From: Hormiphora californensis
Lineage: Eukaryota; Animalia; Ctenophora
Assembly: GCA_020137815.1 (NCBI GenBank)
Contig: CM035354.1
Coordinates: 124,001 to 188,000, forward strand
Reading direction: 5' to 3'
Length of the DNA stretch: 64,000 bases
Positions 4,773-58,246 of this stretch are shown piece by piece. The notes below the pieces were generated by a model that searched no databases, was not told the DNA's origin, and worked only from the letters and a program-made list of their open reading frames with translations. Positions within the stretch are counted from its first letter, which is position 1. Every line of letters starts with the position of its first letter. The translations under genes were made by a program, and so were the position numbers.

Positions 4773-4889
4773 TTAAGTTAGAATGGTTTAGAGAGGGATT
4801 GGCAAACGTTGCTGGCCCCGCGGGATAAGGCAGCGCTTTTCAATGTAATGAGAGGGAAAAAAATAAAAATGAAAATTGACGAATTCAAT

Positions 4890-6755: not shown

Positions 6756-9700
6756 CAAGATTACAAGATTACAAGATTAAAACAGAATTTATAATGTCAA
6801 TAAAATCAACATCCGCTCATACACTATACGAGCCTGGATATGCATAGTACAGTATGACAACACATAACCAGGCCCGGTAATAAATTAATATTACTAGTTA
6901 CCTCAAGCGGATTTCAACATTAAGGTAACGAGAAATATGTAAGCACATTAGGTACTGTCCGAATCATCGAGTCAATCAATAAATTTAAAAGTGTATTTTC
7001 ATAGTCATCTCACACATTGATATGATTGGGTGACACACGAATTTAATAGTAATTATAACACATGTAAAACAAGTCAACATTATATAACGCTGCAGCGATA
7101 TGGATTAAGCAGTACAGTAAAGGGACCCAGAGACCGATGTGATATTAGGTTGAAGTAAAAGGACCAGGAATGATTTTGAGAAGGGGAAAAGGGCTGATGC
7201 CGGAAGTGATGGAATAAGTAATATAGAGTAGAAGGACCCGGAAAACCGATGCGAAATTATGTTGGAGTAAAAGGACCCAGGACTGATATACAAGGCAATT
7301 ACTGTCCGTATGCTTTAGAAAGAGGTGTGTCTTCAATGCTGTTTTGAAAGATGATAGGATTCTGAGTCACGTATCGCTCGTGGTAATTCATTCCACAGTT
7401 TTGGAGCTACAATACTGAACGCTCCCTTGGTGTTGTCGTAGTGAAACTCACTTTCCGTATTTCCTTGAGTGCAGTTTCATCTTTGTCAATTCTGAGTGAC
7501 TGAACTTTCTGGGGTCGCTTCTCCAACATTTCAGCCATATAGGGGGGAGATAGTCCGTTTAGAGTCTTGATACCAGTAAACAAATTTTACTCTCATCGTT
7601 GTCTTACAGGCAAGAAATGTGATTCATTCTCAGTTTTGTCACACCACGTCTGCCCCTCTGCCGTATATAAATCTCGTCGCAGCGTTTTGTATTTTTGGAG
7701 TCTTTTTAGATCACTATCTTTCATAGAAGACACAGGGATTGCAGTAATCTAGCCGGCTAGGATGAGAGTAGTCACCAGCTTCGTTTTCTGCATCTTGTTG
7801 AGTTCTCCCGCAATCCTCCACATTTGCACCAGTTGAAGTTACATGCTCGACAACTTTAGTAACGTGATCAGACATGGATAGGGTACTGTCAAATATTACA
7901 CACACGTTTCTTGCAGATGGAGCGATTGCCGTTTCCTCTCTTCTGGATCAATTTGAATAGTCTCAGTTTCTGCTGCTTTGCTCCATTTACTCTTCAAGAT
8001 GAGACACTTCTGTTTTGTCAGGATTTAGTTTCAACATATTGTGGTGCCATCCACACCCTTATATGTGCCACACATTTCTGTAACCTATCAATGACATCAG
8101 CGATGGAGTCTGGCAGAAAGGAGATGTAAAGCGAGAGTATATCTGCGTACATATGGAGGCTGAGACCATATAGAGCAGCAATCTTTTCCAGATCCTTTGT
8201 GTACAAGATGAACAAAAGAGGTCCCAGAATGGATCCCTGGGGAACGCCAATCTCGATGGGCTTAGAACTAGACTCCATGGATCCAATCCTGACCCTAGCA
8301 GACCGTCCAGACAGATATGACTTTATCCATTTGAGAACTCGACCTCCAATTCGATATTCAGTCTCAAGTCGATTTAAGTTTGGAATGGAAATGGTGTCGA
8401 AAGCGGCAGACAAATCCAACAAACCCAAGATCACCTGGGATTTTTTGTACCTTGCATGAGGATGTCATTTCTATCTTCACTGTAGCAGTTTCGCAGCTAT
8501 GGTTAGTTCTGTAAGCAGATTGGAACTTAGCAAATAGATCATGTTTTTCTATGTTCCTATCAACTGGTCTGACACACACTTCTCTACACTTTCGAGAGGA
8601 AAGATAAGTTTGAGATGGGTCTATAACTCTTGAGCTCATCCGGATCCAGAGATGAATTTTTGTAAGCAGGTCTTATGATAGCTCTCTTCAGACTTTCTGG
8701 AACTTCCCCTTCTGATAAGCTCATGTTGACAATTTTTGACAGGAGGGGAACAAGATGAGGAAGTACTGCAGTTAAATCGAAGTAGGAAGTGGATCGAGAG
8801 CACAATGTTTTTGATTCATACTTCGGATTTGTTTACCAGTTGTTCATCAGACACAGGTTTAAACGATGAAATACAGGAGAGATTGGCGATTCTGGCGTCA
8901 AATCCGGAAGGAAAGGCAGAGTTTCCGAGAATGCTGGGTCGTTGCGAATATCATCGTAAATACTCTGACCTTCGAATGGAAGAAGTCGTTAGCATTCTGG
9001 TGTTTGGCAGGATCAGCAACGGTTGGTAGTTGACGGGGAGTTTTATCTTTACCAAGTAGGAGTTCAGAAGTTGATAAGTTGCAGAAGGATTTCCTTCGAC
9101 AGCTTCAAGACGTCTTCTAAAGTACTCTCTCCTCGCTTTTCGAAACACAGACCGTGCACATCGCACTTCTTTCACAACTCCAACTCAGCTCGATCAAGCT
9201 CTCAAAGGACACCCTGGTGGGCTTCCGCAGCTTTTTTCTGTAAAGCTTTTTGTACTGCGTTCAGCCTTGCGTCGACTCTCAGCACATTGTAGAGGCATTA
9301 TCAAACCATTGAGGTTTTCCTCCAACCGATAGATTTCCTCAAGAGGTGCTAGTTCATCCAATATATCAAGTAAAAGCTCCTGGTACATTTCAACGCAGTC
9401 AGCAAGAGAGCGGCCAGGAAACAGTGGTCCTTTCAGTTCAGATTTCTGGATCAATCTGTTATAGCTTCAGCTGTTATTTTTCTCATAGCTCGGCATGTAA
9501 CTGTCTTTTTCAGAGATGGTCGGTTTGCTGAACCACAGTGAACATTAAATGATACAAGAAAATGATCAGGAACCTCTGGAGTTGGTATAACATCTACATC
9601 ACTCAACAGATATTCATCTCTGCAAACCAGGTCAAGCAACCACCGTTTATATGAGTCGGCGTGTAATCTTCTGGTGCCAGTTATGATCTTCAACTATTTG

Positions 9701-11595
9701 CAATAGTTGTTCGAAAAATAAGCTGGGGGTTTTCAGCATGGATGTTAAAGTCGCCATGATGATTAGCAGGTGTCCATTCAAAGTGGAGAAAGCCGCAAAA
9801 AATTGTCGAACTCGTTAGAAGACAGCCTGTTTTGTTGAATCAGGTGGACGATACACAACAGCTACTCTAGTAAGTTGAACTCCGGGTCCTTCCACTGTAA
9901 CCACTAGGCACTCATATGACGAAAATTGGCGATTCGTCTTCGGTCGCTTCACAGTTAAGCCATTTTTGCATATTACTGCACACCTCCTCCTCTGGAACCT
10001 CTAGATAAACTTATCAACTGATAGTCAAATCAGAGATATGTCTTGAGATCGCAGTTCTTCGACATGAAGCCTGACTCAGTGATGACACATAAAATCAATG
10101 CACGTTCAGAAATAAGCACCATAACTCCTCCAGTTTGTTACGAGAGGGAGAAACAGTTCAAGCTTCAAATCGGAGATGAGGAACCCCTGACATCTCTAGT
10201 TTTTTTGCCATCCTGTTAATGACACTGACCCGAACGGGACACAGACGATAACCACTGTAGTGAGAATGGGAGCTGGATTTATGCTCCGATGAGTTATTGC
10301 AATTAACGCACAGTTTCGTAGATGTAGCATCGCATTGCTTCACATCATGGTCACCGCCACAACGTTTACAGACTGAGACTTCACTAGTACAGTCCTTTCA
10401 CATGGTTGAAACCCTGGCATTTATAGCATTGTTGAATGTGAAAGCGTCCTCAACATTTAGCCGTGATCTCCCGTAGTATAACTTACCATATCCAGTACAC
10501 GCTTTGGATGGCTACTGGAAGTCTAAGAGCCACATTGCACAACTGTTGTTTTTAAAGTGACTCTTTACATCAACCACAGTGGTGTTGCTAGATTTGATCA
10601 GGGTTTTGGATTCAAGGTTGTGCAAACTAATTTATTGATGGCGTCCTTTCCAACACCTTCGGTCTCCAGTGGTACGTTGAGAATAGTCACTTTAGCGGTG
10701 CTGACGACTGGTGAAATAGTGGCATCGGCAGAAATTTTCTTCTCGATAATCTCACTGATTGATGTCATATCAGTTGATTCTGGGAGGCCAATAATGATCT
10801 CATCAGACTTTTTGCAGTCAAGGAAGTTGATAGGGGTCGCACACAGGGCTACATCAAGGTTTTCAGCTATCCTAGCTGAATCATTGTTCGGGCAGCTAAT
10901 CCTCAACTTCATTGATGGAACAGTTTTCCGGATAGGTCGCGTTGTGGTTGGAGGTTGGATTACAGGGGTCTCTGCTGAACTTCCGGCCGCAGTCGCAAAT
11001 GTCGGAGGTGACGTGGAGGTAGTTGGAATCTGGGAAGCAGAGGGTTGGGAAGCAGAGCGTTGAGTTGCAGTTAACTCAGATTCAAGGGTATCCTGTGATG
11101 ACTGGGAAGCATGATTGGGTTGCAGCGGGGGGCCATTCGGGAAAAAGGATTTGAGAGCACTCACAATTTTCGACTCTATGCTAGACTCCATTTCCTCATT
11201 TAGTTTACTAACTCGACTTTCAATGGATTCATTTAGCCGTGTTTCAAGCTGAGGAACCAGTTTTGCAGTCAGAAAGCTGATCAGCTCTTTATTGCGCCAG
11301 ACTCAATGTCCTTAACCAGCACACAATGGTTGCACCACCAACTGGAAACAACAGTCGGAAGTGTGGATCGGTTAATGTTCGCAAAACCAGGATTAGCACA
11401 AGCTGGATGATAGTACCTGGAACATTTCAAACACTTGATCCGCGGGACTCTGTTGGTCGCCTTCTTCCCACACTTGCACATCTCCAGATCGTCCGGAGAG
11501 GTCATATCTTTGGACTGCCCTTCGTGGGCTGTTACATCAGCTTTATCCTAAAACTCAAATTAATTTGTTTAAAGTAGTGTTGAAAAGTTTGAAAC
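6752..11595 (-). mobile_element. Full-length but frameshifted L2/CR1-group LINE ('LINE A'): ORF1 with PHD finger and zinc knuckles (~11505-10158), ORF2 APE-RT (~10150-7310), (TCTTGTAA)n tail, leader-like 5' end
   Basis: CKCGK..CLKCSRYYHPAC..WWCNHC; CYKCQGFNH; YRPISNLSFLSK; QSAYR..HSCETA; LLDLSAAFDT; GVPQGSILGPLLF; HMYAD. Tail repeats (acaagatt) at 6755-6779. Confidence 0.88.
11554..11595 (-). other. Spliced-leader-like sequence copy at 5' terminus of LINE A
   Basis: GTTTCAAACTTTTCAACACTACTTTAAACAAATTAATTTGAG, identical over 41 nt to 37159-37199. Followed by TTTTAG, not a GT donor, so it is not an SL RNA gene. Identity with the ctenophore SL is recalled from memory. Confidence 0.8.
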
Positions 11596-11635
11596 ATGAG
11601 AGTGTGTCAATGAACAATTGTTTTTTTTAATTTAT

Positions 11636-22143: not shown

Positions 22144-24268
22144 AACTATGAACGTTTGTAGACTGGCGCGTTATGAAGTTGGCTTTTCCCAGCGCGAGCT
22201 GGGAACAGCCAACTGGAGTTTAATCGCCCGGCAGGGCGATTAAACTGGTTTAAATCCCGACGCCGATCCCGAGGCGCTAGCCGAGGGTGAGTGGGAGGTG
22301 ATTTAAACCTATAACGCGATAGGCTAACAAACGTTCATAGTTTATGAAACCCGATAGTAATTACACGCAAATAAGAGACACAACACAAGGTGAAACACAC
22401 AAGGACTGCTGTAGTCAACAGACGTCCCCAAACTGTGTGTAGACTAACTGGCACCTAGTTGCAACTGTTCCTTACATATTTGAGTAAGAGAGAGCAAGCA
22501 CGGTGCCCCTGAAGGAAGTTCCACCTCGACCGAGTCCCCCAGCAAAACGAACGGTTGTGTGACCTAAAGGGGACCTCTGGGAACTACGGAGGACCGTGGG
22601 GGAAAAGATTTAAAAGTAGCCTAAAAAATTAAAACGATAGAAAGATAGCTATCGTTTTTTCACTTTGAAAATACGACATTTCTTTAACAAAATCCTTGAT
22701 CAGGAAGATGCAATTAGTGTCTCCCACCTATTTTTTGACGTAGAATCGAATGCCGTTGAAGTCAAATCTCTAAAATGTTAGAAAAATGGTGAAAATCGCG
22801 TTTTTAGGTGTTTTTTGGTGAAAAAATCGTTCAAACTGGTACTAGATGATGAGATAGAGTCCCAAAAGTATGACAAATCGCTTTTTTGGGACCTTTTCGC
22901 CCTAGAAACAGATTTTTATGAAAATCTAGTTCAGCGCCTATTCTCTGTATACTTTCAAAGAAGGTGAATATTGCTCTAATTTAGCCAATTTTGAAGAAAA
23001 GTCATCCAAAACAGTACTAGATGATGAGATAGTGGCCCAAAAATATAACTAATCGATTTTTTGGGTCTTTTCCGTCCTAGAAACAAATTTGCATGGCGGT
23101 CGGATGATAAGTTTCCTCTCGGTAGGCCTCTGAAGTAGGTGGAAATAGCCAAAATATAGCGATTGCGGCAAATGAATGTGAATAAACGTTTACCAAACCC
23201 ACTTCATCATCATGTATGGCTCTTGCATAGTCCAGTAGCCCAGAGATAGGTCAAACATGATGCTAAAGTGGGTTTGGTCAACGTTTATTCACATTCATTT
23301 GCCGCAATCGCTATATTTTGGCTATTTCCACCTAGTGCAAATTTGTTTCTAGGACGGAAAAGACCCAAAAAATCGATTAGTTATATTTTTGGGCCACTAT
23401 CTCATCATCTAGTACTGTTTTGGATGACTTTTCTTCAAAATTGGCTAAATTAGAGCAATATTCACCTTCTTTGAAAGTATACAGAGAATAGGCGCTGAAC
23501 TAGATTTTCATAAAAATCTGTTTCTAGGGCGAAGAGGTCCCAAAAAAGCGATTTGTCATACTTTTGGGACTCTATCTCATCATCTAGTACCAGTTTGAAC
23601 GCTTTTTTCACCAAAAAACACCTAAAAACGCGATTTTCACCATTTTTCTAACATTTTAGAGATTTGACTTCAACGGCATTCGATTCTACGTCAAAAAATA
23701 GGTGGGAGACACTTGCATCTTCCTGATCAAGGATTTTGTTAAAGAAATGTCGTATTTTCAAAGTGAAAAAAACGATAGCTATCTTTCTATCGTTTTAATT
23801 TTTTAGGCTACTTTTAAATCTTTTCCCCCACGGTCCTCCGTAGTTCCCAGAGGTCCCCTTTAGGTCACACAACCGTTCGTTTTGCTGGGGGACTCGGTCG
23901 AGGTGGAACTTCCTTCAGGGGCACCGTGCAAGATTGGGGCCAATACACACATTGAGAGATATTGAACAGTAAAAGAGAGAATGAGAGAGAGAAACGAATG
24001 GAATGCGATTATTTTGTCTCTTGATGAGAGAGATAACATTGAAAAGTGTTGCAGATGTGTTCCCCTCTCTGTTATTGACAGAACTGTGTGTTTACACACA
24101 TTTTCATTACTTGGAAATTTACACGCATGTTATGAAAATGAAGAGAAACGCGTGAAAAAGGGCACTGGTCTGATAAATAGCGAGCAGGGTGTTAAATCCC
24201 CCAGCTCGCAGTTATCGAGTGCGCGTAAAATGTTCAAAAGACTGATAAATCAGCTATCGGGTTTCATA
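22144..24268. mobile_element. Multi-hairpin element (copy 2, diverged), interrupted by the 22499-23928 insertion
   Basis: Same stem architecture as 17684-18344. tatgaaacccgatag / ctatcgggtttcata inverted pair. Internal similarity (aagtgttgca...gttccc...agaactg...tttacacaca). Confidence 0.55.
22499..23928. mobile_element. Non-autonomous foldback element, Chapaev/Transib-like (CAC...GTG ends, 4-bp TSD, ~600-bp TIRs)
   Basis: caag|CACGGTGCCCCTGAAGG ... CCTTCAGGGGCACCGTG|caag. Arms near-identical, with an internal second inverted pair. Confidence 0.8.
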
Positions 24269-31123: not shown

Positions 31124-34100
31124 ACTAGACAAGAATGAAATATAATCAAGGTTAGATCTACTCTAACTAAGGTTATCTACACTGTATTTTAAATAATCTG
31201 TTGGAGATCAACTAGAACTGATCATATTGTACGATGGTAAACGTCAATATACGTCAATAAACGAAAAGATTTTAAGACGGAGTGAAAGATAGAGAACCTA
31301 AGATTAATTAAAAATTCTTTAACAATGTATCACGTACAAAAGAGTAGTTATTATACACAGCCATGCATCTATTGCACTCATGTACGTGGTGTGTGTTAGT
31401 AAAACAAGCAAGAACGTTGCACTGTACAACGTCAACAAATTACAAAGAAGGAGCAGATATACACACACTCGCTAACCATGACCAAAAATCCGTGGCCCAC
31501 TCTGTACAAGTGCAAGTGGTTGTTTACTGTACCATGAGAAGGAACAGCTATACATAAAAGTGTGTGTGTGTATGATTTTGTAATGTATTCTAACACCTAG
31601 TACCATGAGCCATGTGGTGGCCACACGAGGTTAAACAATAATAATAATAATAATAATAATAATATTCCGCGCTTATATACCGCCCATACCCGACGGAAAC
31701 ATGTCAAAATATTGGCGATGTTCCGACGAGTCATCAGAGCGGTATATCCTAGAGTAAAAATATCGCACACGAACAATTCTGGTTGAAAAAGACAATATAT
31801 GGAAAACCAAATTAACTGGACTTATCAAACTGAGGGAATAACTGGTCCCATAAACCTGTAGATATAATTTTAAACACGCTATACTCACACCTGCTCAAAA
31901 AAGGATACCAGATAGTGATTTAATAACATGACTAGAGAGAGGATGAGACTGATTGCCCGCAGACCCCACAACTACAACAAACATTACAACTCAGCCATGG
32001 GTTCCCCATCACCCACTCCAAATGCACCAACGAAGAGATGTGTTTTCAGGCGAGCTTTAAAGGTATCAACGTTGGGGATCGACCTTAACTCGAGGGGTAG
32101 CTCATTCCAAATAGCAGGCAGAAATACTGATAGTCTCCTACGTCTCAATTTAGAATTGGCTTTGATACTGGTCATCTTGGGGTGTTTTAATCTGTAAGGA
32201 TCAATAACACTAGTCATCCTTGTTGTCCTGGAGACTCCCCAGCTTTTATCAAGAGGAACCATTTCCTGGAGGTAACCTGGTGCCGTTCCATAGACTATCT
32301 TATAAGCGATTAGACAGGCTTTGAAGTCCAGTCTGTAGGAGATGGGTAAAATATGACACTGCCTGAAGTATTCCGAGTAATCCTCTTGATGCCCATGGAT
32401 GTTGAATATAAAGCGTACACAGGAGTTTAGTGTTTTCTGGAGCCCACCAAGAACTCGGGCCGGAAGTCCACAGTACAGAATATTACTGTAATCAATCCTC
32501 GATATAATCAATTGTTTCACCAACATTATCTTCGTTTGAATATCAAAACATCTGTGTAACTGCCAAAGATTCCGTAGTATCAGCCCACACTGTTTCCTCA
32601 CATTGTTAACCTGTCGTTCAAGATTTAGGTTGTGGTCCAAGAGTATTCCCAAGGTTTTCCCATCTGCTCCACTACATTCACTGGGGAAGATTTCCGTTCC
32701 TCCAAAGTTGATAACTGGATCGAAAGAGATTTTACTCAAAGAACTGCGCTTTCCAAGCAGGATGAATTCCGTTTTGGCCTCATTACACTTCAACCACTGC
32801 CCCACCATCCACCGCTTCACCTTCGCCAGACACTCCTCAATATCCACCTTCGTCCTAGACCAGCCAGTAGAATCCGTAGGAACCAGACTCACATAGAGCT
32901 GGGAGTCGTCTGCATATAACTTTATCCGGAGTCCATATGGTTCCACAATATCTTGCACAGCTTCAATGTAAAGTAGAAACAAAATAGGACCAAGAAGAGA
33001 CCCCTGGGGCACTCCACAGAGTAAGGCCAGGGTATCCGAGAGACAATCACCAACCGAGACTCTAAAAGATCTGGAACTCAGGTAGCTCTTAAACCATTGA
33101 AGAGGATCACCATCCACTCCAAACCGTTTCTGCAACACCTCCAACAACTTTTCATGATCCACCGTATCAAATGCGGCACTCATGTCCAAACAGATCAGAG
33201 CAACAACATTTCCTTTATCCATCTCACCTAATACATCATCAAACATGCTGGCTAACAGAGTTTCGCAACTGTGACCAGCACGATAACCGGATTGATGCTT
33301 GCCCAGAAGTGAATTGCTTTCAAGGTACTCATTCAGCTGCGTGAGCACCACCTTTTCTAGGAGCTTAGAAAGGAATGGGATATTTGAGACAGGACGATAG
33401 TTACTGAGAGCTTCCCTATCTCCGTACAGATTCTTGATGGTAGGAAACACGATAGCTTTCTGGAGAGATTCCGCAACTGTAGACTGATGTAGAGATTGGT
33501 TTACCATCGATGTTAATACCGGAGCAAGATCCCTAATGCACTCCTTTACTACCCAAGTGGGCAACGGATCAAGGTCACAATGTTTGCTTGACATAGACTT
33601 CACCACCTTAACAAGTTCCTCCTCCGACATCTCTTTGAATTCCTTCCATGTTGAATGACAGGCTTTTCCGGGTTCCTCAAAGTCGCCAGCTTGCTTCTGC
33701 TCCTCATTGACTTGGGTTCGAATTTTTTCCACTTTGGAACTAAAGAACTGGGAGAAATCATCTGCCAAGTTCTTGGTGTTTGTTGTTTCAGGAAGAATTG
33801 TTTCAGCTTTTCCAAGGAGTTTCTGGAGCTTACTTTGCAATTTCTTTGGGTCACCTTTGGCAGCAACCAAGTCCTCTTTAATGAAAAGTGACCTCTTTTC
33901 CCTATCCATCTTTCCATACAGTTTCTTCAGGTCATTAAATCTCCGTTTCGCATCCACAGTTCCAAGTTTCCGCCAACACCGTTCTGCATTCCTCCTCTCT
34001 CGAAGTAATCCTCTAAGTTCCTCATCCCTCCATGGCTTAAACTTTTTACCAGTCCTCACCCGTTTCCTCGGTACTCGCTTCTCCACTATACCTTCCAGCC

Positions 34101-34844
34101 AACGATAGAAATTCACCACGCCCTCCTCTGGATCCCTACCTCCTTCAAAATCTGCCTTCCGCAAGTCCTCTTTAAATCCTTCCAAATCCACTGACTTGTA
34201 ATCCATGTATTCTCGATGCACTGATTTCTTCAGACAGGAGTTCGACAGGTCAGGTCTCACTTGAATCCCAAACTGTACTAGGAAGTGATCTGATGTAGTA
34301 CCATTAGGAAATATGGAATATGTCACCTAGAGAAGTTTCTCTTGTAGTTATCACCAAGTCCAAGGTTCCTCCCAGCTGGTGAGTAGGCAACATTGGTACT
34401 CTTTGTTGAAGATCAAATGAATCCAGCAGCTCCAAAAGTTTCCTTGCATAGAAGTTATTATCATCTTGCACCTGGAAGTTTAGGTCACCAGCGATGATCG
34501 GAGTACCTTGCTTCATAACAAGCTCGGAAAGGTAGTCACCAAACTCCGACAGGAAAGTTGCTTCTGTAAGTCTCGACCTCGGTGTGTACGGAGGACGATA
34601 GACATTACAGATTCTCTTCGGTTGATCTCTGTCACTGATCAGAACCTCTTGTACTTGAAAAGACTTATACTTGGTCTTCACTGGACACTGCCGAAGAACT
34701 ATGCCATCTCGAAAAAGTATTCCGATTCCTCCACCTCCTCTGTCTCCTCTGGGGCATGAGAAAATGTCCCATCCATTATCTCTGATTTCTTGAAGTTTTC
34801 CAGTGTCCGTTGATTTCAAAAATGTCTCCTGTATAAGACAAATA

Positions 34845-35709
34845 CAGTCGGACCCCGATTTAGTGGCATCCTCGGGGGAAAGAAATCCTGCCACTAAATC
34901 GGGGTGCCACTAAATCGAGGTGAGCCATATTTGGCCCATAAAAACCTATTTTATGCCCAAAATGCTATACTAAGACTAAAGACACCTCTAACTGTTATAT
35001 ATGCAATATTCATGTATTGATGACATGATCATTTCTGATTAGAAATAGAAAACTATCAAATAACTTTTTCAAAAAAATTATGAAAAATTTTCTAAGTTAT
35101 ACCAGCCCGTCTGATTTGTGTTTCGAATCGGTGCAGCTTCCTGGATGTCCTGTCTAATTAGCGGGTTCGAAACGAACCGATACGTGATACCATGCCGAAT
35201 CGGGGCACCCTAAGCGGGTGAGGAAGTACATATCAAAATTTCAAAATAACTTTTTTTCTCAAAATTTATGGGGAGCACCGATCAAAGTGCATTGACAATC
35301 GTACTGTAAAATTTTGCAAAAAAAAGTTTTAAATTTTTTTTAAAGGTATACCAGCCACGTCCGAATCGTGTTTCGAATCGGTACATCTTATCGCATGTCC
35401 TGCTGCTAATTAAACGGTTCGGAACGAATCGAAACGTGATCCCCATCGAATCGAAATTTTGACGCTTGATGAACTTATGATTTAATGACCCCATGGGGAT
35501 CACGTATCGGTTCCGAACCGTCTAATTAGCAGCAGGACATGCGATAAGATTCACTGATTCGAAACACGATTCGGACGTGGCTGGTATTCCTTTGAAAATT
35601 TCAAAAAAATTTCACAAAAAAAAATTCAAAAAAATTTTTGGGGGAAAAATATCTTGCCACTAAATCGGGGTGCCACTAAATCGGGGGCCACTAAATCGGG
35701 GTCCGACTG
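34845..35709. mobile_element. pogo/Tc1-type MITE inserted in LINE B ORF2 (related remnant at ~48510-48595)
   Basis: ta|CAGTCGGACCCCGATTTAGTGGC ... GCCACTAAATCGGGGTCCGACTG|ta. Excision restores the APE reading frame. Confidence 0.9.
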
Positions 35710-37158
35710 TATCACAATCCTCCTCTTCCAGATGCGAAATAACACCTCCAGTTTTGTTAATAAGAGAGCGGACATTTAGTGTCCCAATCTTCCAAGTCTT
35801 TTCCTGTGTAGTTCCTCCTTGGTCCTCGTCCAGTACAGGTTTTTTTCCTCTTTGCTTACACCTGCAGTCCTCTCCATAAGCCGTGCTCGTTCATTGATGT
35901 AGGAAGGGCACCACATACTTGAAGCCGTATGGGTCTTCGAATACTTCTTGTCCTCTCTTGATCCTCCAACTTCACAGTTCACACATTTCATCCTACCAGT
36001 CTCGTTGTTCTTCTTTGCTCTACAGTCTTTCGTCTGATGCGATCCAGCACAGAAGCAGCATATTGGAGTATCCTTTTGGGGGCAGTAAATCGATCCTGCT
36101 ATATGCCCAAATCCTTGACAGTGAAAACACTGTATCACATGATACCTGTTCTTGACAAAGTGTTGCCGAAGACCCAAGTTGATCTTATCCCCGTTAGTAG
36201 ACAAAAGCCTCCGGATCTCTGGAGCCATCTGGATCACTGCATACCTGTCTCTTTCGCTCACAAACACCACCTTCAACTTCTTGTCCTCATGATAAAGTTT
36301 TCTGATATCCACATTCTTGTCCAAAATCGCTGCCAGGATAGTCTCCTTTTTCAGTAGGTCTGGGTCCAAATCATTTATAGTTACCTTTGGTTCAAGCTTC
36401 TTGGCCTCCTCTGAGAAAAATGACATGGAACAGTCCTGTGCAAGTGGAGTCAAAACTTTCTCTGCTTCCTTCATCTGGTCTTCATCAGGGAAATACAGCC
36501 GGGTATGGTCACTGTTCACTCTGGATCTCACCACCGGTATCGTCTTCAACGCAGTTTCCACTTTGGGTTTGACCTCATCAGTCCACTTCTTCGCACAGAA
36601 TCCTGGCCCTCCTTCCTCATTGATGCCAGTTTTAATATTCACATAGTGTTTCATCGTAGGTGTAACCGGTTCCTCTGGATCACCACCACCAATATCACTT
36701 CTACTATTCTCCATAGGTTTGACCAAAGCAGAGATAGTGGAAACCAGATCCTTGTGCAGCTTTGCAAACGACTCTTTCAGATCAGTCTGGTCTCCAGGAA
36801 CAGAAAACGGTGCCGACGCCGGAAGCATGTTGTAACAGGCTTTGAGAAGATGCCACAACTGAGGTTTATGGACAGACGACGGACAAACAGTGTCACCCCT
36901 CCCAAGGCACACTAACAAATCACTACCCTTATAATCATTACTAAATACTTCTCCTGCTAACAGGTCTTCAAAATCACTCTTAGTGATACATATGTCATAA
37001 TTACTCGTAACGGTCATCCTAAAACACCCGTTGCACGCCGGCCAACAACAAACTCTTCACTGATATCACTCGTAAGTTAAGTTAAAGTAGGCCTAACAGA
37101 GATCTAAAAGATTAGAGAATAGATGCTAACACAGTTATCAGGAACGATTGACGGCAAA

Positions 37159-37199
37159 CTCAAATTAATTTGTTTAAAGTAGTGTTGAAAAGTTTGAAA
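37159..37199 (-). other. Spliced-leader-like sequence copy at 5' terminus of LINE B
   Basis: TTTCAAACTTTTCAACACTACTTTAAACAAATTAATTTGAG followed by TTTGCC (no GT donor); 141 nt upstream of the ORF1 ATG. Confidence 0.8.
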
Positions 37200-40100
37200 G
37201 CATAATAATTAATTGTGAAATAGTACATGTGTGGGTCGTGGGGTTTCACTCCACTGCATATTATATGACCTAACTATTTATCCAACGTGGTAAACCACAT
37301 AGAAGACTGGGGAGAAGATTGTGATACTGATGAAAGTACTGATGAAATTGTTTCAATAGAAAAGTTGGTGACGCGGTCACCCCTACACTAGGGCCGCGCG
37401 AAGCGCGGCAAACGAAGCCGGCGAAGCCGGCTGAGTGTAGGGGATCTAATCACCAAATAGAAAAGTAAAATATAGTTCTCTCCACAACTGAAGATGACTG
37501 ACATAGTTCAGCCTAAAACTTTACATAATATACCTGGACAGACTACTAGTATGTAGTACAAATTTAGGTAGCAATATATGACAGTATTATGGTCTATCTA
37601 TATGGTGAAGCTTTACGTAAACACGCAGTACAATCTTTAAAGACTAATGACAAACGACAGCATATGTAAAGCAAGACTGAGTTGTGTAGGAAACAATATT
37701 GGGTGTACAAACTCAACAAATCTTCATGTCTCAAGATTCGTTTCAAATTCAGACCATTAATAGGATTAAGAAAACTTTGCAGGTTCAACAACTTTTCTTT
37801 CAGATGTATTGTACGCTATTCGCTAATACTCGCCTTCAATTACTCTTTATGTATGCGTATCTGAAGTCCTTATAAGTATATTAGTTAGTCCAAATGGCAT
37901 ATAATATACGGCGTGGGTCTATCATGCCAATGCTCTGACCACAGTTCTGACCACAGAATCTGAATAGGGTCAGGCCAATGCTCGGACAGGCGTGGGTAGT
38001 TGTGAACAAATTTGATCTAAGAAAAACACTAAATAGAAACAATGGTCTGCTGTAATTTACTAAACTTTATTGGCCGATCCAAGTCAAATATAACTTCTTT
38101 GCATACCGATAAAGCTTTTAACAAAGGACTAGCAGAGTTTACAATATGTAATATTAGCATGTCTGGCTCCTACCGCAGAAAGCCTAACAAAAGATGGATC
38201 TGTTATTATACTGGTGTCATGGAGAACTATGACTATAGTTAGGAGGATAAAGGCTGCCCCACTAACATAACAACTCACACATGGGGAGCTGTCATTTGTG
38301 AGAGAGTGAGATAGAGTGAGATAGATATGTGAGAGAAAGGGAGAATGAGAGAGACAGAGGGAGAGACAGAGCTGAGGGAGATAGTTAGAGAGTGATATAG
38401 AGAGGGGAGAGTGAGACAGAGGGAAAGAGAGGCCGAGTGAGATAGAGTGAGAAATTACGTGACATAGACAGATAGATAGAGAGATTAATTGAGAGACTGA
38501 GAGAGAGAGAGAGAGAAAGACATTTAGGGGCCTTACAAACACAGCTAATACTATATGAGGGAAATAGTGAATAGAAGGAAACTATCAATAACATGTTGGA
38601 GCTAGCTAGATTAAAATAAACATGAGGGTCCAGTGGGCACAAAGCCAAAATCGCCCCGCCACAGTGGCTATCTATAGCAAATTAAGACGAATTTAAAAGT
38701 ATCATATTCATTTAGGTCTGCGGTTAATACTTTGAATTGAGTTACAAAATTGAGAAGTGAGAGATTGGACAGAATAAATATTAAAGCTTTCGTCATCCAC
38801 ATGAGTATCATGCTGCAGTAGATTTTCGTGGAATCTTATTTGCCTGAATGAATTAAGCAACATACATCTCCTGGATCTCCCTCGAAATTCTATTCTGTGG
38901 CCCAGTTGTAAAAGCTGTAACCGCGATACACTACACACCCTGGGCCACACTGATACGTGTGAATCACACTGTGGCACTGTGATTGTGTGTGTGTTCAATT
39001 GTCCTTCGTCAAATAATAAAAAGAAAGAGAGCTTATGAAACTACCACCTCTAGTTCTAATATATATCTTCTCTATCCAGATGGCATTGCCAGCTGTTTCA
39101 CGAGCGAGTGATCTCTCAATTCAGTTACGCTCTTGAGTCTATGACATAAATCGGCATATGGTGAATTGAAACAACAAAAAAGCCGTTAAGATAGCGGATT
39201 GGTTTGATATCAGATAAGACTATTGTTGCTGTCAAGTGGCAGTGATTTTTGGTCTGCTCAGGCACGCGTGGGGTGAGTCATCCAAGCCTGAGAAACAAAA
39301 ACAAGGCTGGGGAGGTGGTTTGAGTAAGTGGTCCTAGCTCCCACGTAAGATAAAATACTCGTAATTCAAATAATTCTGTTTTGTGCAGATAAACTCAAGT
39401 TGTAATTAAGAAGATAAGGTCTGCCCATGTTTACATCATACATTTACAGCATGTTGAGAGAGACAGCAATAATACACTCACATGAAATTCCCCGCACAAA
39501 ACTTGTAGGTCCTCTAAATGTATAAAGGCCATTAAGTGTACAACTACCTCTCACTGAAGCCATGCTACTCAGCAAAAATCTCTTGAAAGGATAGTGACAT
39601 GTTGTGTACATCTGTCAGGCCAATGCCCTGACCACAGTTCTTGCGCTCATTTGAGAGAAATGAGAATAGGGTCAGGCCAATGCTCTGACATGTGTACATT
39701 TCATAGATTCTCTGTCAGATCATTGGCCTCAAAGCGCGAGAACATGGGCCTGACAGTAGATTCTTTGACTGAAGTGTGCGTCATATGTAGGTACGTAGGT
39801 CACACATGTTTAAAGGATGGCTCATGATCAGATTCAAATTATTCAAAGGTTGTTGTCGTAGTAATGGTCAATACTGTTGAATTGAGAATTCCCTTGATTA
39901 ATTTGACATCTAGTCGAATGAACATGTAGCTGTATAAAGTATGTAATATTAGCTGTATGACCCAGACGAATCACTCATATCAACATGACAAAATGAGCAT
40001 AATTTGTGCGTCAGAGTGTATGATGTGTAACCGTTTATATCTATATGAGAACGAACGTCTGATGAGAGAACTAGGACAGATAAAATTATGGAAAACGGGA

Positions 40101-49091: not shown

Positions 49092-49682
49092 TTAACCCGA
49101 AGCACCCTCTTCTCTCTTCTTATCTGCCAGCCCTGTGACACACTCAAACAATCTCTTGTCAGTTATGTCATTCTCATCTATCAAATATGATTCACCGTTC
49201 GCTTCAAATGACTCAAATACACCAACATTAACCGGAACACGAATATCTTTCGGATCAATTGTCCTCTCGTAAGATCTACAAAATAGGCTCAGTTTTGTTG
49301 CCACTATCTTATCATCTCCCTCCATTCTCATTTCAGTAACATAATTGCGTGTTGTGTAGTAAATTACCCCTGTGTATAGGTAGGTAAGGGAGATAGGGGC
49401 TCCTGTTGCTAGTGCCATCCATACAGATGAGAGGTGGAACTTTTTAGCAGCTATCATTGGGGCGAATATGGTGGTAAATCCAGAGGATGCGAGGGTGATG
49501 TAACGAGATCGCTTCACTCGAGGGGAGAGTTTTCCCTTGTAAGAATCACCAGAAAGACAGCGTGGAGAAATTACTTTAGCTGGGTTTATCAGTCGAGAGA
49601 TACAACAACGGATATTCATGGCCATGCCTGGAAAGTACATGTTGTTAGTTTCGTTAAAATCAAGATCAATTTGAGCAGCCAT
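49092..49682 (-). CDS. TMEM70: TMEM70-like mitochondrial ATP synthase assembly factor, intronless
   Basis: YKGKLSPRVK..SS, two TM segments, TRNYVTEM, DIRVP...VFESFEANGESYLID pattern. Confidence 0.8.
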   Translation of the reverse strand: MAAQIDLDFNETNNMYFPGMAMNIRCCISRLINPAKVISPRCLSGDSYKGKLSPRVKRSRYITLASSGFTTIFAPMIAAKKFHLSSVWMALATGAPISLTYLYTGVIYYTTRNYVTEMRMEGDDKIVATKLSLFCRSYERTIDPKDIRVPVNVGVFESFEANGESYLIDENDITDKRLFECVTGLADKKREEGASG

Positions 49683-49832
49683 ACCCAAAAAAATTCCACA
49701 CTGAAAAGGGAAACTCCAAACACAACCACATGGCTAATTCGAGTAAACTATACGGTTTACAATAGATAGTCGATATCACTAACCAATGAACGCAAACATA
49801 ACCCTATCGGGTAGCCCTAATCCGTCTCAAAC

Positions 49833-50421: not shown

Positions 50422-51890
50422 ATACAAGTTTACAAGTTTACAAGTTTACAATAAAAGTTTTAGTGTACACAACAGGCCTTCCCTTAGTGGGTCCACCTAA
50501 ATAAATTAAACACGTATCACCTCTCAGCCACTCTCAGACATTTACAGCACATTGAGGGGAAATATCATTGGGAAGTGATGGATAGCCTCTGACAGGGGGA
50601 CGGTCATAAAAGCCTGTCAAGTAATTGCCCAGGGATGATTTGAATTGACCTAAGCTTCCGCAAGAGTTAACGGCCGCTGGCAACCTGTTCCACAGGTGAG
50701 CAGCTCTCGGTCCGAAGGAAGAATGGTACTGATTCGCTCTCCAGGTCTCAGCCCGATAAGGAAACACTGGTGGGACTAACCTCATACCCAGCCTTGCACT
50801 GTGTTGGAACACAAGATTAGCAGAATTCGGAACAAACCCATGGATCGTCTTCCACACATGTATCAACATGTAACGTTGTCTCCTACGTTGAAGAGACATC
50901 AGGTTGAGAACTTTTAATCTCTCCCAATAGTCGAGATTCTGCATTCCATCAAGTCTTCTAGTAAAACACCGTTGGACGTTCTCAATTGACTTGATGTCCC
51001 CAGACTTTGACGGATCCCAGACCAGACAACAATACTCCAAAATTGGTCTGACCAGTGATTTGAAGAGTTGCAACATTACCTCTGGTGAACGATCTCGAAA
51101 AACACTGAAAATCCACCCAGATAGGAGAGAGGCTCTCCTCACAATGGTGGCAATGTGCTTAGACCAAGAACCATCCGAGGACATCTGGACACCCAAGTCA
51201 CGGACATCAGCTTCAGGAAACAGTTGTACTCCAGATTTTGTGGTATACGAACATATGTCAACTGAAAAAGGGAATTCCTTGTAGATTGCCGACTTGTTCA
51301 GTCTGTAACTCAGGAGTTGAAATTTCTGATCATGTAGCACCATATTGTTTATCTTGGCCCATTCTGTAACCTTCAAAAGATCAGATTGTAAACCCTCCTG
51401 ATCAACAATATCTGTTATGGCTTTCATTAACTTGGTATCATCCGCAAAGGTGAGACACATACTACCATCCAGTACAGATTCCAGGTCCAGTATATAAATA
51501 AGGAAGAGGAGAGGGCCCAGGACACTACCCTGCGCCACCCCGCTGAGCACCTCCACCCATGGTGACCTAACCCCATCCACCATCACACACTGCTGCCTGC
51601 CCAGGATCCACGCACTGATCCACTGATGAAGTTTTCCTCCAATCCCGTACCTTTTCAACTTAGCTAGCAACACATTGATATCCACCGAATCAAAAGCTTT
51701 AGAAAAGTCTAAATAGAGAACATCAACTTCTCTATCTCCACAGAGTTCAGTTAGGATGTAGTCAACATGAGATAACAGTTGGGACATAGTACTACGTCCC
51801 TTTCGAAAACCGTGTTGCGTTTCACTCTGTAACTGCATCTCATCCAAATAATCAGCTATTCTCTTTCTGACTAGCCGCTCAAACACCTTC
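50422..51890 (-). mobile_element. 5'-truncated CR1/Daphne-type LINE ('LINE C') with open RT frame and (CTTGTAAA)n tail
   Basis: QHGFRKGRS, YLDFSKAFDSV, SGVAQGSVLGPLLF, FADDTKL, YWERLKVLNLMSLQRRR. Confidence 0.92.
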
Positions 51891-52811
51891 GATAGGTTTC
51901 AGAATGCACGAAGAATACAATACAACTTTTTTTTAAAGTTAAAAATCTCAGCTCGGCCCAAAGGAAAACTTTGGAATGCGCTGCAGCCCCCTCATGCGTG
52001 CACCCCCGCAATTATATTATAAGGGGCCTGCAACGTATGCCAAAGGAAAACTGAAAATTTTGGACTTTGTTGTTTTTCTTGAAAAGCGCTGCCTTATCCC
52101 GCCTTATCCCGCCTGCAACGTTTGCCAATTGTTTTCTTTCTATTGGGGGCCATCAGCGTTTTCAAATTGTTTTCGAGCAAATTTCTGGATCGAGGTGCTT
52201 TTTCTTTCATGCAATACATTCCCTTAGGCCTTACCTCGCACCCTCTTCATGGAGCCTGTACTCTGTAGCATATTTCAAGCTATTCCCTGCTTATTTTGCG
52301 GTACACCAAGCCAAATTTACCGGGCAAAGAAGGCTAAAATGTTAACAGTTTAGTACGTTCTGCTCTGGCTGCCGTGACCGACCCCTCGTGGGAAATTTCC
52401 TCCTCCATACTCCATAGATATCTGTAGAAAAGTTCAAAGGCCTCCAGGATACAACAAGAGACTCCAGGTGACACACCACCGGAGATGATCCACAGTGTGA
52501 GAGATGATGTCACATTTCACAGAGATCCCTGTGCATCTGAGACACCTGATCCATTAGCAATTGCAACTCCCATGAGGTAAAATGTGCACCCCTGTCCGGT
52601 TTCTCATGCTCAGGGATCTCTTATGCATGTGGTGTCTCTTGTTCTTCCGTGCTATGGGTCATCTTCTGTGCGTCACTTGGAGTCTCCTAGAGGCCATGGA
52701 ACTTTTTACGGGTTGCTGGACCTTTGGCATATTACATCAGGGACCCTGGTCGACCGCCATCAAATTATTAACCATTTACATTTAATCTCTAATCTAAATA
52801 TTTTATGCAGG

Positions 52812-55106
52812 ATGTATAAGGCCCCATCCATCCGAGCAATCGACAAAACTTCGATTCACAACATTTGTTCTGGCCAAGTAATTGTGACCCTTGCCACTGC
52901 TGTGAAAGAGCTAGTTGAAAACTCCATCGACGCTCATTCTACGTCAGTTCAAATCACATTCAGGGACTACGGAAAAGTTTCAATTGAGGTCTCAGATGAC
53001 GGATCTGGGATTTCTCCGGAAAACTTCGGGGGACTAACTTTGAAACACCATACATCGAAAATCAGGGACTTTGAAGACATTTCAGAAGTTGGGACATTCG
53101 GTTTCCGTGGTGAGGCGCTGAGCAGTCTGTGTGCCCTGGGAGACCTCTCTGTCACCACCTCAACTGGGGGCGCTGGGAGCCAGATAAAGTATAACCACGA
53201 GGGGAGTATTGTCAGCCAATCAACTTGTGCCAGGGGTAGGGGGACCACGGTCACAATTGAGAATCTGTTCAGCACCCTTCCTGTGAGACACAAAGAGTTT
53301 ATTAAGAACATCAAGAAGGAGTACCACAAGGCGGTGGATGGGCTTCAGGCGTATGCGATGATTTCTACTAATGTCAGGTTGCACTGTGTGAACATTGTAA
53401 ACAAGAGGAAACAGGTGGTGTTTTCAACTCAAAGTAAATCCTCTTTGAAAGAAAATGTTATCAGTATTTTAAGTGGCCAGATCTATCGAAATCTCACTCC
53501 ACTCTCATTTGAAGAAGGTGTTTTCAAGGTAACTGGGTATATCTCTAAGCCCCTTCCCAAGCATGGTCGAGGGTCGGCTGACAAGCAGTATTTCTTCATC
53601 AATAACCGACCTTGTGATCATGACAAACTTGCTAAAACTGTTAACTCTGCCTTCCGGCAATACGAGAAGTTCCAGTACCCCGTGTGTGTTGTGGTCATTG
53701 AAATTAGGACCGATCACTTGGATGTCAACGTCACGCCGGACAAACGGAAAATGTTCCTGGAAAATGAGAATATCCTGCTGACTGCGTTCTCCTCTCATCT
53801 TGATGAGGTGTTCCAGAAATTTGCTGGAGTATTCTTGGATCAAACCACCCAACTTTCCCTTCCTTTTACGACTCCAACCGCGACACCCGACTCTACTCCT
53901 AGCACCATGACACCCATTACTCCTTCATCAAATAAACCACCGGGCGGAGGTGAGGTATTGTTCTTGAACACCATTCCAGATCTCCCATCCTCCTCTCATG
54001 TTCTCCCTGCTACGCCCACATCCCAGGAGAGCTATACAGGAGAATCTCCCAGTGCTGGTAGTGACGATGTGATCTTAGAGTTATTTGAACCCGACGGTGT
54101 TGCTCCAGATGATGGCGAACTGAAAGTTGAGATATTCGAACCATCTTTTGATACGATCTCTACTGGGGGCATGCAAATTGAGATGTTTGAACGTGATCCG
54201 CCCACGCAGGAAGTTGGAATAAAAGGTGAACCCAGCCAGGAAGTTCACATAGTTTCTCCGCAACTGTCAGCTGACCTTGTAATAATTGAACCTACTAAAC
54301 CTTGTACCACTGTTGATCATCTTGATGTGCCTTTAGTTCGTCGCAAAAAAGAGGTCCCATTTGCGTTTGATCCTAGTTATCTGAGAAAACGTCGCCGAAC
54401 ATCTTGTGATCAGGAAAGTGACGAACCAGCGGTCCATTTTGTACACCAAGTTACAACTGATTCATCTGCCGAGAAGGAGCTCAGTCAAACAATCACTAAA
54501 TCCATGTTTAGAGATATGACAATCCTGGGGCAGTTTAATTTGGGATTTATCTTGACACGTCTAAACAGTAACTTGTTCATTATTGACCAGCACGCTACGG
54601 ATGAAAAGTACCGATTTGAAACCCTGAAACGGGAGACAAAGATTGAAAGTCAGAAACTGGTGTGCCCTAAGCCCCTTCGAACACTAAACGGTGCCCAGGA
54701 AGATCTCCTAATTTCGTACCTTCACATTTTCAACAAGAACGGTTTTGAGTTTCGTATTAACGAGGAGGGTACTCCCGGTACACGAGTTGCTCTAACAGCC
54801 CTGCCTCGCAGTAAATCACTTGTTTTTGACGAGGGAGATGTGGAGGAGTTGTTGTGGTTGTTATCCGAGGATACAACAGTAAACAGAGAAAACCTCCGAC
54901 CCTCTAAAGTATTCCGAATGTTTGCATCTAGAGCCTGTAGATCTGCGGTGATGGTTGGGACAGCGCTGAGTGGGGCGAGAATGGGTGAGATAGTCGGTCA
55001 CATGGGGGATATGGATCATCCGTGGAACTGCCCCCATGGGAGGCCGACCATGAGACACCTTGTCGATCTTAATAGGCTTCAACAGAGCAGTGCTGATGAA
55101 CTGTGA
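52812..55106 (+). CDS. PMS2: Mismatch repair endonuclease PMS2 (MutL family), intronless, 764 aa
   Basis: AVKELVENSIDA, TFGFRGEALSSL, DVNVTPDKR, DQHATDEKYRFE, ASRACR, CPHGRP. True start follows the acceptor tgcag|gATG. Confidence 0.96.
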   Translation: MYKAPSIRAIDKTSIHNICSGQVIVTLATAVKELVENSIDAHSTSVQITFRDYGKVSIEVSDDGSGISPENFGGLTLKHHTSKIRDFEDISEVGTFGFRGEALSSLCALGDLSVTTSTGGAGSQIKYNHEGSIVSQSTCARGRGTTVTIENLFSTLPVRHKEFIKNIKKEYHKAVDGLQAYAMISTNVRLHCVNIVNKRKQVVFSTQSKSSLKENVISILSGQIYRNLTPLSFEEGVFKVTGYISKPLPKHGRGSADKQYFFINNRPCDHDKLAKTVNSAFRQYEKFQYPVCVVVIEIRTDHLDVNVTPDKRKMFLENENILLTAFSSHLDEVFQKFAGVFLDQTTQLSLPFTTPTATPDSTPSTMTPITPSSNKPPGGGEVLFLNTIPDLPSSSHVLPATPTSQESYTGESPSAGSDDVILELFEPDGVAPDDGELKVEIFEPSFDTISTGGMQIEMFERDPPTQEVGIKGEPSQEVHIVSPQLSADLVIIEPTKPCTTVDHLDVPLVRRKKEVPFAFDPSYLRKRRRTSCDQESDEPAVHFVHQVTTDSSAEKELSQTITKSMFRDMTILGQFNLGFILTRLNSNLFIIDQHATDEKYRFETLKRETKIESQKLVCPKPLRTLNGAQEDLLISYLHIFNKNGFEFRINEEGTPGTRVALTALPRSKSLVFDEGDVEELLWLLSEDTTVNRENLRPSKVFRMFASRACRSAVMVGTALSGARMGEIVGHMGDMDHPWNCPHGRPTMRHLVDLNRLQQSSADEL

Positions 55107-55210
55107 ATTGTGGTTTCTTATTGTTTAGTGATTTGTTTTTACATGCTTAATAACAATGTGTTTTAATAACCAAACCACTTACTTCCCCTCACTCCTCCCT
55201 AGTTCTCGTT

Positions 55211-56042
55211 ATGTCTAAAATCAGTACCCAACACATGCACAAACAACGGAAGGAGACGAGTAGTAGGGTTCTCCTTCAGAATATCTCAAAGAACAGTGAC
55301 TCAGTGAGTTATTCTGATTCCTGCTTTCGATCTTTATAGCCAGTTTTTTAATCCACACCCTTTTTAATTTCCGGACTAACTCCTAACCATTCCTTCTCTC
55401 TTTACAGAAACCAGGTACTGTCTCTGACGACTCATGCCCCTCTTCTCCTCCTCGTCTCCGGCGTAAAGCGACAACAAGAAGGAAACTTGCTCGGCAAAAG
55501 AGGGTCGAGCTAGGCAAAAGGAAACCTGTCCCAGTCTTTGAATCTGACTCAGAAGATGACTTCAGCCCCTCGCCAGAAGAAAAGTAAGTGATACTGAGTT
55601 TCACATGAAACACTACTTAGTAGTCTTGAATCTGCAGATCAGATAGTTGGTACTGGCAGCAGTTCAATCTCTGTTGAATCTAATTTGAGATTGCGTGGCA
55701 GTTAACTAACCATTCTATCAATGCTTTAGGAGCCGTAAACGGAAGCTAAAACGTCACCCCGCTACCCCTACCATCCAGAATTATTTCTTCGGCAGCCAGA
55801 GAAGACCTAACTTTGGTTCTGACTCGGGTTCTGACTGCCCAGGCTCCGATTCCCCTCGTCCTGTCAACCTATCCTTCGTACTGAACACGAACCTCAACCC
55901 CGACGATGTGATCAGTAGTGAGGAGGATGTTACCTGCACCCCACCAGGGCGGGTAACAGTACTGGAAAAGAGGAAAAAGAGGAAACTGGAAAGGTCATTT
56001 TCTCTGGAGTGGCCATATTTTCTTGACAAATACTTGAAATAG
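55211..56042 (+). CDS. Truncated paralog 1 of the HACE1-like N-terminus (exons 55211-55303, 55408-55583, 55730-56042)
   Basis: Open spliced frame MSKIST...DSEDDFSPSPEEK SRKRKLKR...YLK*, homologous to exons 1-3 of the 58247 gene. Confidence 0.65.
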
Positions 56043-56366
56043 GTCAAATGGTTCAACAAAAACAGTGTTTGAGAACATTTCCAGGTGGTTAATCAATTTT
56101 GATTTGAGTTTTTTGAGTGTATATATCAGAGTCATGAGACTAAATTTCGGTTCATTTTTTTGCAATCACGTACCTATGTATGATCCCTGTATGATGTTGT
56201 TGTTTTTAGTTTGTCTTTTGAAGATCGTGTGATGCCCAACATTGAAATTTGATCAACAAATTCTTGTTCATTGCTTTAAAGTTTATAATTAACGTACCCA
56301 ATTCATTTAGCTTTGATTTACTTAACACAAACCACTAACTTCCCCTGCTCCTCTCTAGCCCCCTTT

Positions 56367-57844: not shown

Positions 57845-58246
57845 AGGACTGTAATGGCGATATTTTCTGAATAAATACTTGAAATAGGGCAAATCAGTGT
57901 TTGAAAAAACTCCCCGGTAACATTTTGATTTGAATTTCCCCCGAAAATACGCCACAAATACAAAATTGCTAGTAAATTAGTTTGCATTGTTGTAGGAAAG
58001 TGTCCGGATGTTGCCCCTCTAACTCTCTGAGGGCTAGAACTGAGAGAATCATGATATAAGGTTGACGTATTCTTTTGTTTATTTGTGTGACTTCTAACAT
58101 TAATAATTGTTAAACAGATTCATTGCTTCATTTTCATTGCTTTAAAGTTTATAATTTATGTTCCTAGTTCATATAGCTTTGATGTGTTAACGATTTGTTA
58201 GAATAACCAAACCACTAACCTCCCCCGCTCCACTCTAGCCCCCTTT

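Follow-up and report, generated by a model that had tools for sequence, protein, structure and literature searches.

Ctenophore LINEs Headed by the Host Spliced Leader, and a Proposed Cycle of Renewal by trans-Splicing

Anatomy of the Leader-headed LINEs

The window analyzed here, 64,000 nucleotides of Hormiphora californensis contig CM035354.1, contains three LINE-type stretches on the minus strand. Two of them, LINE A and LINE B, begin with a copy of the ctenophore spliced leader (SL); the third, LINE C, is a leaderless fragment.

37159..37199, minus strand: integrated ctenophore SL at the 5' terminus of LINE B; 41 of 43 nt, lacking the initial AG; ends GAG
37018..37158, minus strand: LINE B 5' UTR, 141 nt; first 60 nt T-rich
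35776..37017, minus strand: LINE B ORF1, ATG at 37017; C-terminal Cys/His motifs
31984..35890, minus strand: LINE B ORF2 (APE endonuclease, reverse transcriptase), interrupted by a MITE and by a single frameshift near 34317
34845..35709, no strand: MITE-like insert in the LINE B endonuclease region; terminal inverted repeats, TA on both sides
31637..31665, minus strand: LINE B 3' tail, (ATT)n
11554..11595, minus strand: integrated SL, 5' end of LINE A; 42 of 43 nt; followed directly by TTTTAG/GAT
7050..11553, minus strand: LINE A body; ORF1 of another type, ORF2 with frameshifts; 3' end approximate
50534..51898, minus strand: LINE C, 5'-truncated reverse transcriptase fragment without leader; 25% identical to the family-B type ORF2

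The leader heading LINE A and LINE B is the host ctenophore SL. The two copies are the 3'-most 42 (LINE A) and 41 (LINE B) consecutive nucleotides of the 44-nt SL printed in the available part of PMC8527503. The 3' end of the leader at 37199-37159 (minus strand) reads TTAATTTGAG, and the identical sequence stands at 11594-11554. With up to 3 mismatches allowed, the 29-nt leader core occurs twice in the window and not at all in 100 shuffles; no third copy, exact or fuzzy, is present in the 64 kb. The copies were also considered as SL RNA genes, a possibility rejected because the GT donor and SL intron are absent behind the exon: the next letters are TTTGCC in LINE B and TTTTAG in LINE A, followed by LINE ORFs. 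A sequence-only reading of this DNA had placed TTTTAG/GAT right after the leader in LINE A and, in LINE B, immediately ahead of the ATG (37017), as is indeed the case. It had also called the leader AT- and pyrimidine-rich, which is correct for AT (78%) and wrong for pyrimidine; since pyrimidines make up only 56% of the leader and 40% of the 15 nt before its AG, it offers no polypyrimidine tract.

LINE B is organized as an APE-type non-LTR element, with ORF1 followed by ORF2, a simple-repeat tail, no LTRs, and a dispersed, multi-copy distribution. Its ORF1 has no Pfam match and is 84.5% identical to that of a metagenome element, L007. Pfam matches elsewhere in LINE B are to PF03372/PF14529 and PF00078, domains that are intact in L007, L008, and L015. 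No target-site duplication is seen around LINE B. The reverse transcriptases of LINE A and LINE B are ∼40% identical, and their ORF1s are of different types. The window LINEs look L2-like, as a resemblance only; of 1501 homologues, the 120 listed bear no clade names.

Summed contig depth in run X1 is 2,000-12,000 within LINE B and 9 in the flank, a measure of depth and not of copy number. Over 36500-37400 the assembled contigs indicate a highly repeated family B in organism A, and the family also occurs in organism B. In run X5 the flank at 37196-37352 continues into other sequence, a probable empty site, and the LINE B insertion may be polymorphic. The MITE-like element at 34845-35709 abuts another family-B UTR in the same run; it is one of three foldback or MITE-like elements in the window, with 22498-23929 and 3388-4792. 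A decayed element on the plus strand at 4950-6750, in reverse orientation to LINE A and the myosin gene, has no Pfam match and resembles an RLE-type retroelement. The window also holds a 33-nt tandem array in a myosin intron (1-1250), whose unit repeats a GTGAGT/GTAAGT donor, and a segmental repeat of three 1-2 kb copies at 55100-60100.

LINE A has a plus-strand Ras-family gene and a minus-strand myosin gene as neighbors, and LINE B sits between two minus-strand genes, a RhoGEF ending near 42,200 and a ZIP starting near 31,100. LINE C lies between divergent genes, upstream of the minus-strand TMEM70-like gene; a PMS2/MutL-like gene (52581-55106, plus strand) and the TMEM70-family gene (49092-49733, minus strand), one open frame each, stand head to head around it. 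Each LINE is thus upstream of a co-oriented minus-strand gene (myosin, ZIP, and TMEM70-like, respectively), as the earlier reading had stated. Its use of this arrangement as support for host transcription does not stand: co-orientation in 2 of 2 leader-bearing elements (p = 0.25), or in 4 of 5 retroelement-like pieces (p = 0.19), is no evidence for such use. LINE C, being 5'-truncated and leaderless, is evidence neither for nor against renewal of the leader.

A further proposal, that renewal explains the 100% leader identity in the frameshifted LINE A, fails because renewal takes place on RNA, and an inserted genomic copy is left open to mutation. In LINE A ∼9 frame changes are present, which may be assembly indels. 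If 10-30 indels per 3 kb are assumed, the probability that a 42-nt stretch stays unchanged by chance is ∼0.66-0.87, so the perfect 42-nt leader of LINE A is expected by chance.

Leader-headed Elements beyond the Window

A scan of JGI metagenome contigs with the exact 29-nt leader core gives 35 matches in 34 loci: 2 SL RNA genes, 23 mRNA-like contig ends, and 10 retroelement 5' ends. Because the core had to be exact, the scan covers only elements and families with an unmutated leader core. At the 23 mRNA-like loci the leader stands at the contig end ahead of an apparent host mRNA (translations were examined for part of them). Seven of the 10 retroelement loci have an endonuclease match, that of L003 being below the Pfam cut-off, and 4 of the seven also have a reverse transcriptase; L016 and L032 are ORF1-only elements, and L031 is unconfirmed as a LINE. 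Viral contigs contain no leader match and no ORF2 relative. Prokaryote genomes give 37 matches to an 18-nt leader piece, which were taken as chance.

Together with LINE A and LINE B, 12 leader-headed elements are available, and their flanks are unrelated to one another. Compared with the 43-nt gene exon, they lack 0, 1, 1, 1, 1, 2, 2, 2, 2, 3, 5, and 8 nt at the 5' end; that is, 11 of the 12 leaders are clipped by 1-8 nt, nine of them by 1-3. The leaders are otherwise unchanged, with at most one possible internal change (L007). The earlier observation of a single leader per LINE with no tandem relic holds for both window LINEs and for each of the other 10 loci: none of the 12 elements has tandem decaying leader relics. 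The UTR itself was considered as a decayed leader relic and set aside, as alignments inspected by eye show no convincing likeness.

The elements behind these leaders are diverse. The UTR start can be aligned across L003, L008, L034, L007, and LINE B, and the UTRs of LINE B and L007 are 56-60% identical to those of L003, L008, and L034. ORF1s are 43-61% identical among families with a whole leader (43-44% for LINE B and L007 against L003, L008, and L034). The ORF1s of LINE A, L016/L032, L020, and L031 have no match to the B type, and the L020 endonuclease has none to the family-B type ORF2. SL-headed 5' ends are therefore general across several ctenophore LINE lineages. In the first 60 nt behind the leader, the 12 elements and the 23 mRNA-like contigs do not differ significantly in pyrimidine content (p = 0.19) or in T alone (p = 0.08).

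Several loci merit separate mention. ORF1-only retroposed elements with (TAA)n-type tails include L016 and L032, which are leader-headed, and a copy in the window at ∼12790-13580 (plus strand), which is not and lies just upstream of the plus-strand Ras-family gene. In L020 a 364-nt flank ahead of the leader (1926-2289, minus strand) starts with GTAAG in the element sense; four other loci that share its contig prefix resemble mRNAs, so the flank may be intronic read-through RNA (or DNA carry-over).

The two SL RNA genes are in L022, at 693-735 and one 778-bp repeat further on, each with exon and GTAAG donor, in tandem with 5S rRNA genes. Their exon begins with AG and is 43 nt long; a library artefact may therefore account for the additional G at the start of the published 44-nt consensus. 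The SL RNA of L022 matches no Rfam model. A TCACC motif lies 61 nt upstream of the SL gene and is reminiscent of an external snRNA promoter, which is absent from the LINE copies.

Acceptor Sites in and behind the Leader

GAG acceptors are rare in general, and the AG that closes the leader is a GAG. Among 11 predicted host intron acceptors in the window, from introns picked by eye, 8 are CAG, 3 are TAG, and none is GAG (12 introns were hand-picked, and MYO2 was dropped for an anchor mismatch). With neither a pyrimidine tract nor a clear branch point, the leader AG fails as a canonical U2-type 3' splice site. Outron acceptors of S. mansoni are described, in the part of the report available, as more permissive than cis acceptors (PMC5832876).

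Eight AGs lie between the leader and the ATG of LINE B, the first at +33, and the UTR includes the following sites.

37126, minus strand: end of the AG at +33, GTGTTAG
37104, minus strand: end of the AG at +55, a further TTTTAG
37019, minus strand: end of the AG at +140, GTGTTTTAG before the ATG

Class-B UTRs (LINE B, L007, L003, L008, and L034) keep GTGTYAG near +33 and GTGTTTTAG before the ATG, and GTGTTTTAGGATG is kept in L007, L003, L008, and L034. In LINE A, L016, L020, and L032 a TTTYAG is kept 6 nt downstream of the leader. It is present in 4 of the 5 UTRs related to the LINE A type and missing in L031, as if this element had been spliced 6 nt further on. Over their first 50 nt these five elements have a common UTR module despite unrelated ORF1s, consisting of TTTYAG (except in L031), then GTAAC and a GCCC/GGGC hairpin. 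The downstream YAGs alternate between T and C at -3, the pattern of an acceptor under selection, but they are seldom removed. A precedent is reportedly found in Drosophila Sxl exon 3, where a downstream YAG is said to recruit factors while the upstream AG is ligated.

Contig Evidence at the LINE B 5' End

The read data consist of assembled contigs only, and region 37005-37180 was chosen to exclude other leader carriers. In run X5 depth runs on from the UTR into the leader (14,261; 12,987; 11,629), whereas runs X8 and X9 contribute no contig to this region and so bear on the question in neither direction. No non-leader loose end at 37158 is among the rows listed for X5 and X13 in this region, and no continuation from the UTR into non-leader sequence at 37158 is among those listed for X1, X11, and X12. 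The rows listed in the DNA runs thus include no outron-bearing source copy of family B, and the 5'-complete family-B forms listed are headed by the leader. Eleven variant rows fall in the UTR part and none in the 22 leader nt covered (p = 0.23).

One DNA contig of run X13 departs from the standard junction.

37126..37158, minus strand: 33-nt stretch absent from one DNA contig of X13, where the SL abuts the letter after the first downstream AG

Here the leader continues at 37125, and the skipped 33 nt end in the first AG behind the leader. The joint is a single contig with a depth of 138.6, compared with 16,838 at 37144; its side is 22 nt long, the position has a 2-nt ambiguity, and further letters may lie between the two sides. 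When deletions are placed by chance, 27 of 8128 (0.3%) give a product with the SL behind an AG, and 0.04% give this exact one. The simplest reading is a second round of trans-splicing on family-B RNA followed by reinsertion, although the joint could be an AG/AG microhomology deletion. It concerns splicing at a downstream AG and not at the leader's own AG; re-splicing at the latter would restore the same junction and so leave no footprint in DNA. No joint anywhere in 36500-37400 is among the rows listed for X1, X5, X11, and X12, and no SL-GATG joint, the product of splicing at the ATG-proximal TTTTAG, is listed in X1, X5, X11, X12, or X13, bearing in mind that contigs drop rare forms.

RNA run X11 provides one 165-nt UTR contig (depth 3.6) in which the ATG-proximal TTTTAG has not been spliced, and two further contigs that extend 112 and 159 nt beyond the 5' side of a leader; all three are strandless and may be DNA carry-over. 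In X13, two contigs at window position 37180, with a loose end at 37179, have an SL gene variant with one exon substitution that could serve as a natural marker in tests of leader renewal.

A Renewal Cycle and Its Alternatives

These insertions were copied from RNA that had the host SL at its start, attached to the UTR. Nearly every insertion then lost bases at the 5' end, so plain copying should erode the leader or fill it with flank letters. As the leader is nevertheless whole in far-apart lineages, it must either be restored in some way or be kept by strong selection for the rare complete copies. We lean, with modest confidence, toward restoration: the LINEs would carry the host SL as their genomic 5' end, and the leader would be renewed in each cycle by SL trans-splicing at its own final AG. 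Transcription would start upstream of, or at, the genomic leader, and the flank and old leader would serve as an outron. A fresh SL spliced on at the same junction would restore the 1-3 nt usually lost at insertion, with no relic building up. If the leader is restored by splicing, the junction stays fixed, and there is no outron-bearing source, then the acceptor must be the leader's own AG, as the earlier reading had proposed. Speculatively, the conserved downstream TTTYAG and GTGTYAG might help recruit 3' splice-site factors for the weak GAG while rarely being used themselves; such helper YAGs would sit inside the element, downstream, where splicing cannot remove them. The X13 joint behind a downstream AG is a footprint to be expected if trans-splicing still acts on family-B RNA. 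Against renewal at the own AG stand the GAG acceptor, the stronger YAGs downstream, and the textbook TTTYAG kept at +6. A broader version of the renewal model is tentative and on the whole doubtful: promoterless LINE lineages and ORF1-only elements might have any through-transcript cut to an exact, freshly capped 5' end at the GAG, assisted by the conserved downstream helper YAGs, and such ends might account for a large part of the hundreds of genomic leaders.

The acceptor problem disappears if the SL was captured once per lineage and copied along thereafter, with an internal promoter in the leader or UTR that starts at the leader's first base, selection keeping the leader exact, only rare complete copies propagating, and downstream trans-splicing occasional. 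The GAG then need not serve, the conservation of the downstream motifs is explained, and both the X13 joint and the one RNA contig unspliced across the ATG-proximal TTTTAG fit; a promoter role has also been proposed, in the available parts of two reports, for the integrated leaders of dinoflagellate retrogenes (PMC5585692, PMC6050394). Inheritance of this kind is nonetheless unlikely, though to be taken seriously, given that 11 of 12 copies are clipped and that exactness over deep divergence demands very strong selection. Moreover, the UTRs of the element groups are unrelated, some being shorter than 50 nt, so the same start geometry would be needed in each. The SL gene appears to have an upstream promoter element.

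A GAG acceptor is equally unnecessary if source elements have their own promoter, an outron, and a normal YAG upstream of the UTR, and the leader-headed copies are their trans-spliced, non-propagating offspring. Full-length Hydra CR1 transcripts do bear a trans-spliced leader, according to the portion of PMC12220107 available. Such sources are improbable here: no listed family-B contig in X5, X13, X1, X11, or X12 goes from the UTR into non-leader sequence at 37158, and a source that loses its promoter in copying has no means of self-renewal. Splicing of the element could be dispensed with altogether if the reverse transcriptase, on reaching the leader, switched by homology to an abundant SL-bearing mRNA. 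The leader is present on more than half of the Iso-Seq reads of H. californensis (PMC8527503, in part), and 5' chimeras of LINE-1 are attributed to template switching or RNA ligation in the accessible text of PMC13174262. Switching gives no reason for a joint to fall exactly behind an AG, and read-through templates should often leave 5' transductions whereas the 12 flanks are unrelated; it is accordingly very improbable as the source of the leaders.

Comparison with Known Systems

Dinoflagellate retrogenes with SL relics were reportedly described by Slamovits and Keeling in 2008. As far as the available sources go, they resemble the ctenophore elements in that trans-spliced RNA was reverse-transcribed into the genome with its leader. 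The published model is re-splicing at an AG inside the integrated leader (PMC3229502, available part), with a promoter role of the leader as a rival model in the portions at hand of PMC5585692 and PMC6050394. In the same partial accounts, the dinoflagellate copies are passive host genes, and splicing after nucleotide 7 gives tandem decaying relics, whereas the ctenophore elements are autonomous and have no relic. The ctenophore leader has a single internal AG, at positions 1-2, and 11 of 12 copies have lost it.

R2 elements obtain a defined 5' end by means of a 5' HDV-like ribozyme that cuts it from a co-transcript. L1Tc/ingi elements, in the literature as partly available, likewise derive a defined 5' end from a longer co-transcript and have a 5' HDV-like ribozyme and an internal promoter (Pr77) within the element. 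In the ctenophore elements, by contrast, the host spliceosome and SL RNA would do the 5' processing. At the gathering score, Rfam finds no family and no HDV-like ribozyme in the 64-kb window, although divergent ribozymes could escape. NeSL-1, SLACS, CZAR, and CRE are non-LTR elements with a restriction-like endonuclease that insert into SL RNA genes. The ctenophore elements differ from them in their APE endonuclease, their dispersed flanks, and an SL exon only at their own 5' end; SL-gene-specific RLE elements (NeSL, SLACS, CRE) were rejected as an identity on account of the APE endonuclease and flanks unrelated to L022.

Leader fragments at LTR and LINE loci have been noted in parasitic flatworms, with trans-spliced element RNA suggested as their origin (597 loci in PMC12582326; 6 of 32 genes in PMC5832876). 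In the available text of these reports they are passing remarks on discarded loci, given without element anatomy or a renewal mechanism. In Hydra, ∼30% of Iso-Seq reads from transposable elements, full-length CR1 included, carry a trans-spliced leader (PMC12220107); in the part of the paper at hand this is described at the RNA level only, whereas in ctenophores the leader forms the genomic 5' end. For H. californensis itself, the same leader is reported on 56% of Iso-Seq reads and in 718 genomic copies, with 491 copies in M. leidyi (PMC8527503), and the accessible text treats the genomic copies as spliced-leader loci or mapping artefacts without a link to LINEs. A search of openly accessible papers found no description of ctenophore SL-headed LINEs or of a renewal cycle in autonomous LINEs. 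The elements described here are APE-type LINEs with the host SL as their 5' end, together with one probable DNA footprint of continued trans-splicing.

Implications

LINEs easily lose their 5' ends and must rebuild a promoter or processing site in each cycle, for which internal promoters and ribozymes are the known answers. If the renewal model is true, host SL trans-splicing would be a third answer, operating in an animal and in many lineages at once, and the 718 genomic leader copies of H. californensis and 491 of M. leidyi would be reinterpreted. Leader-based gene annotation would pick up LINEs. Given the DNA footprint, public chromosome-scale genomes and long RNA reads can be used to test the model, and, were the model true, the system would test whether GAG can be a routine trans-splice acceptor.
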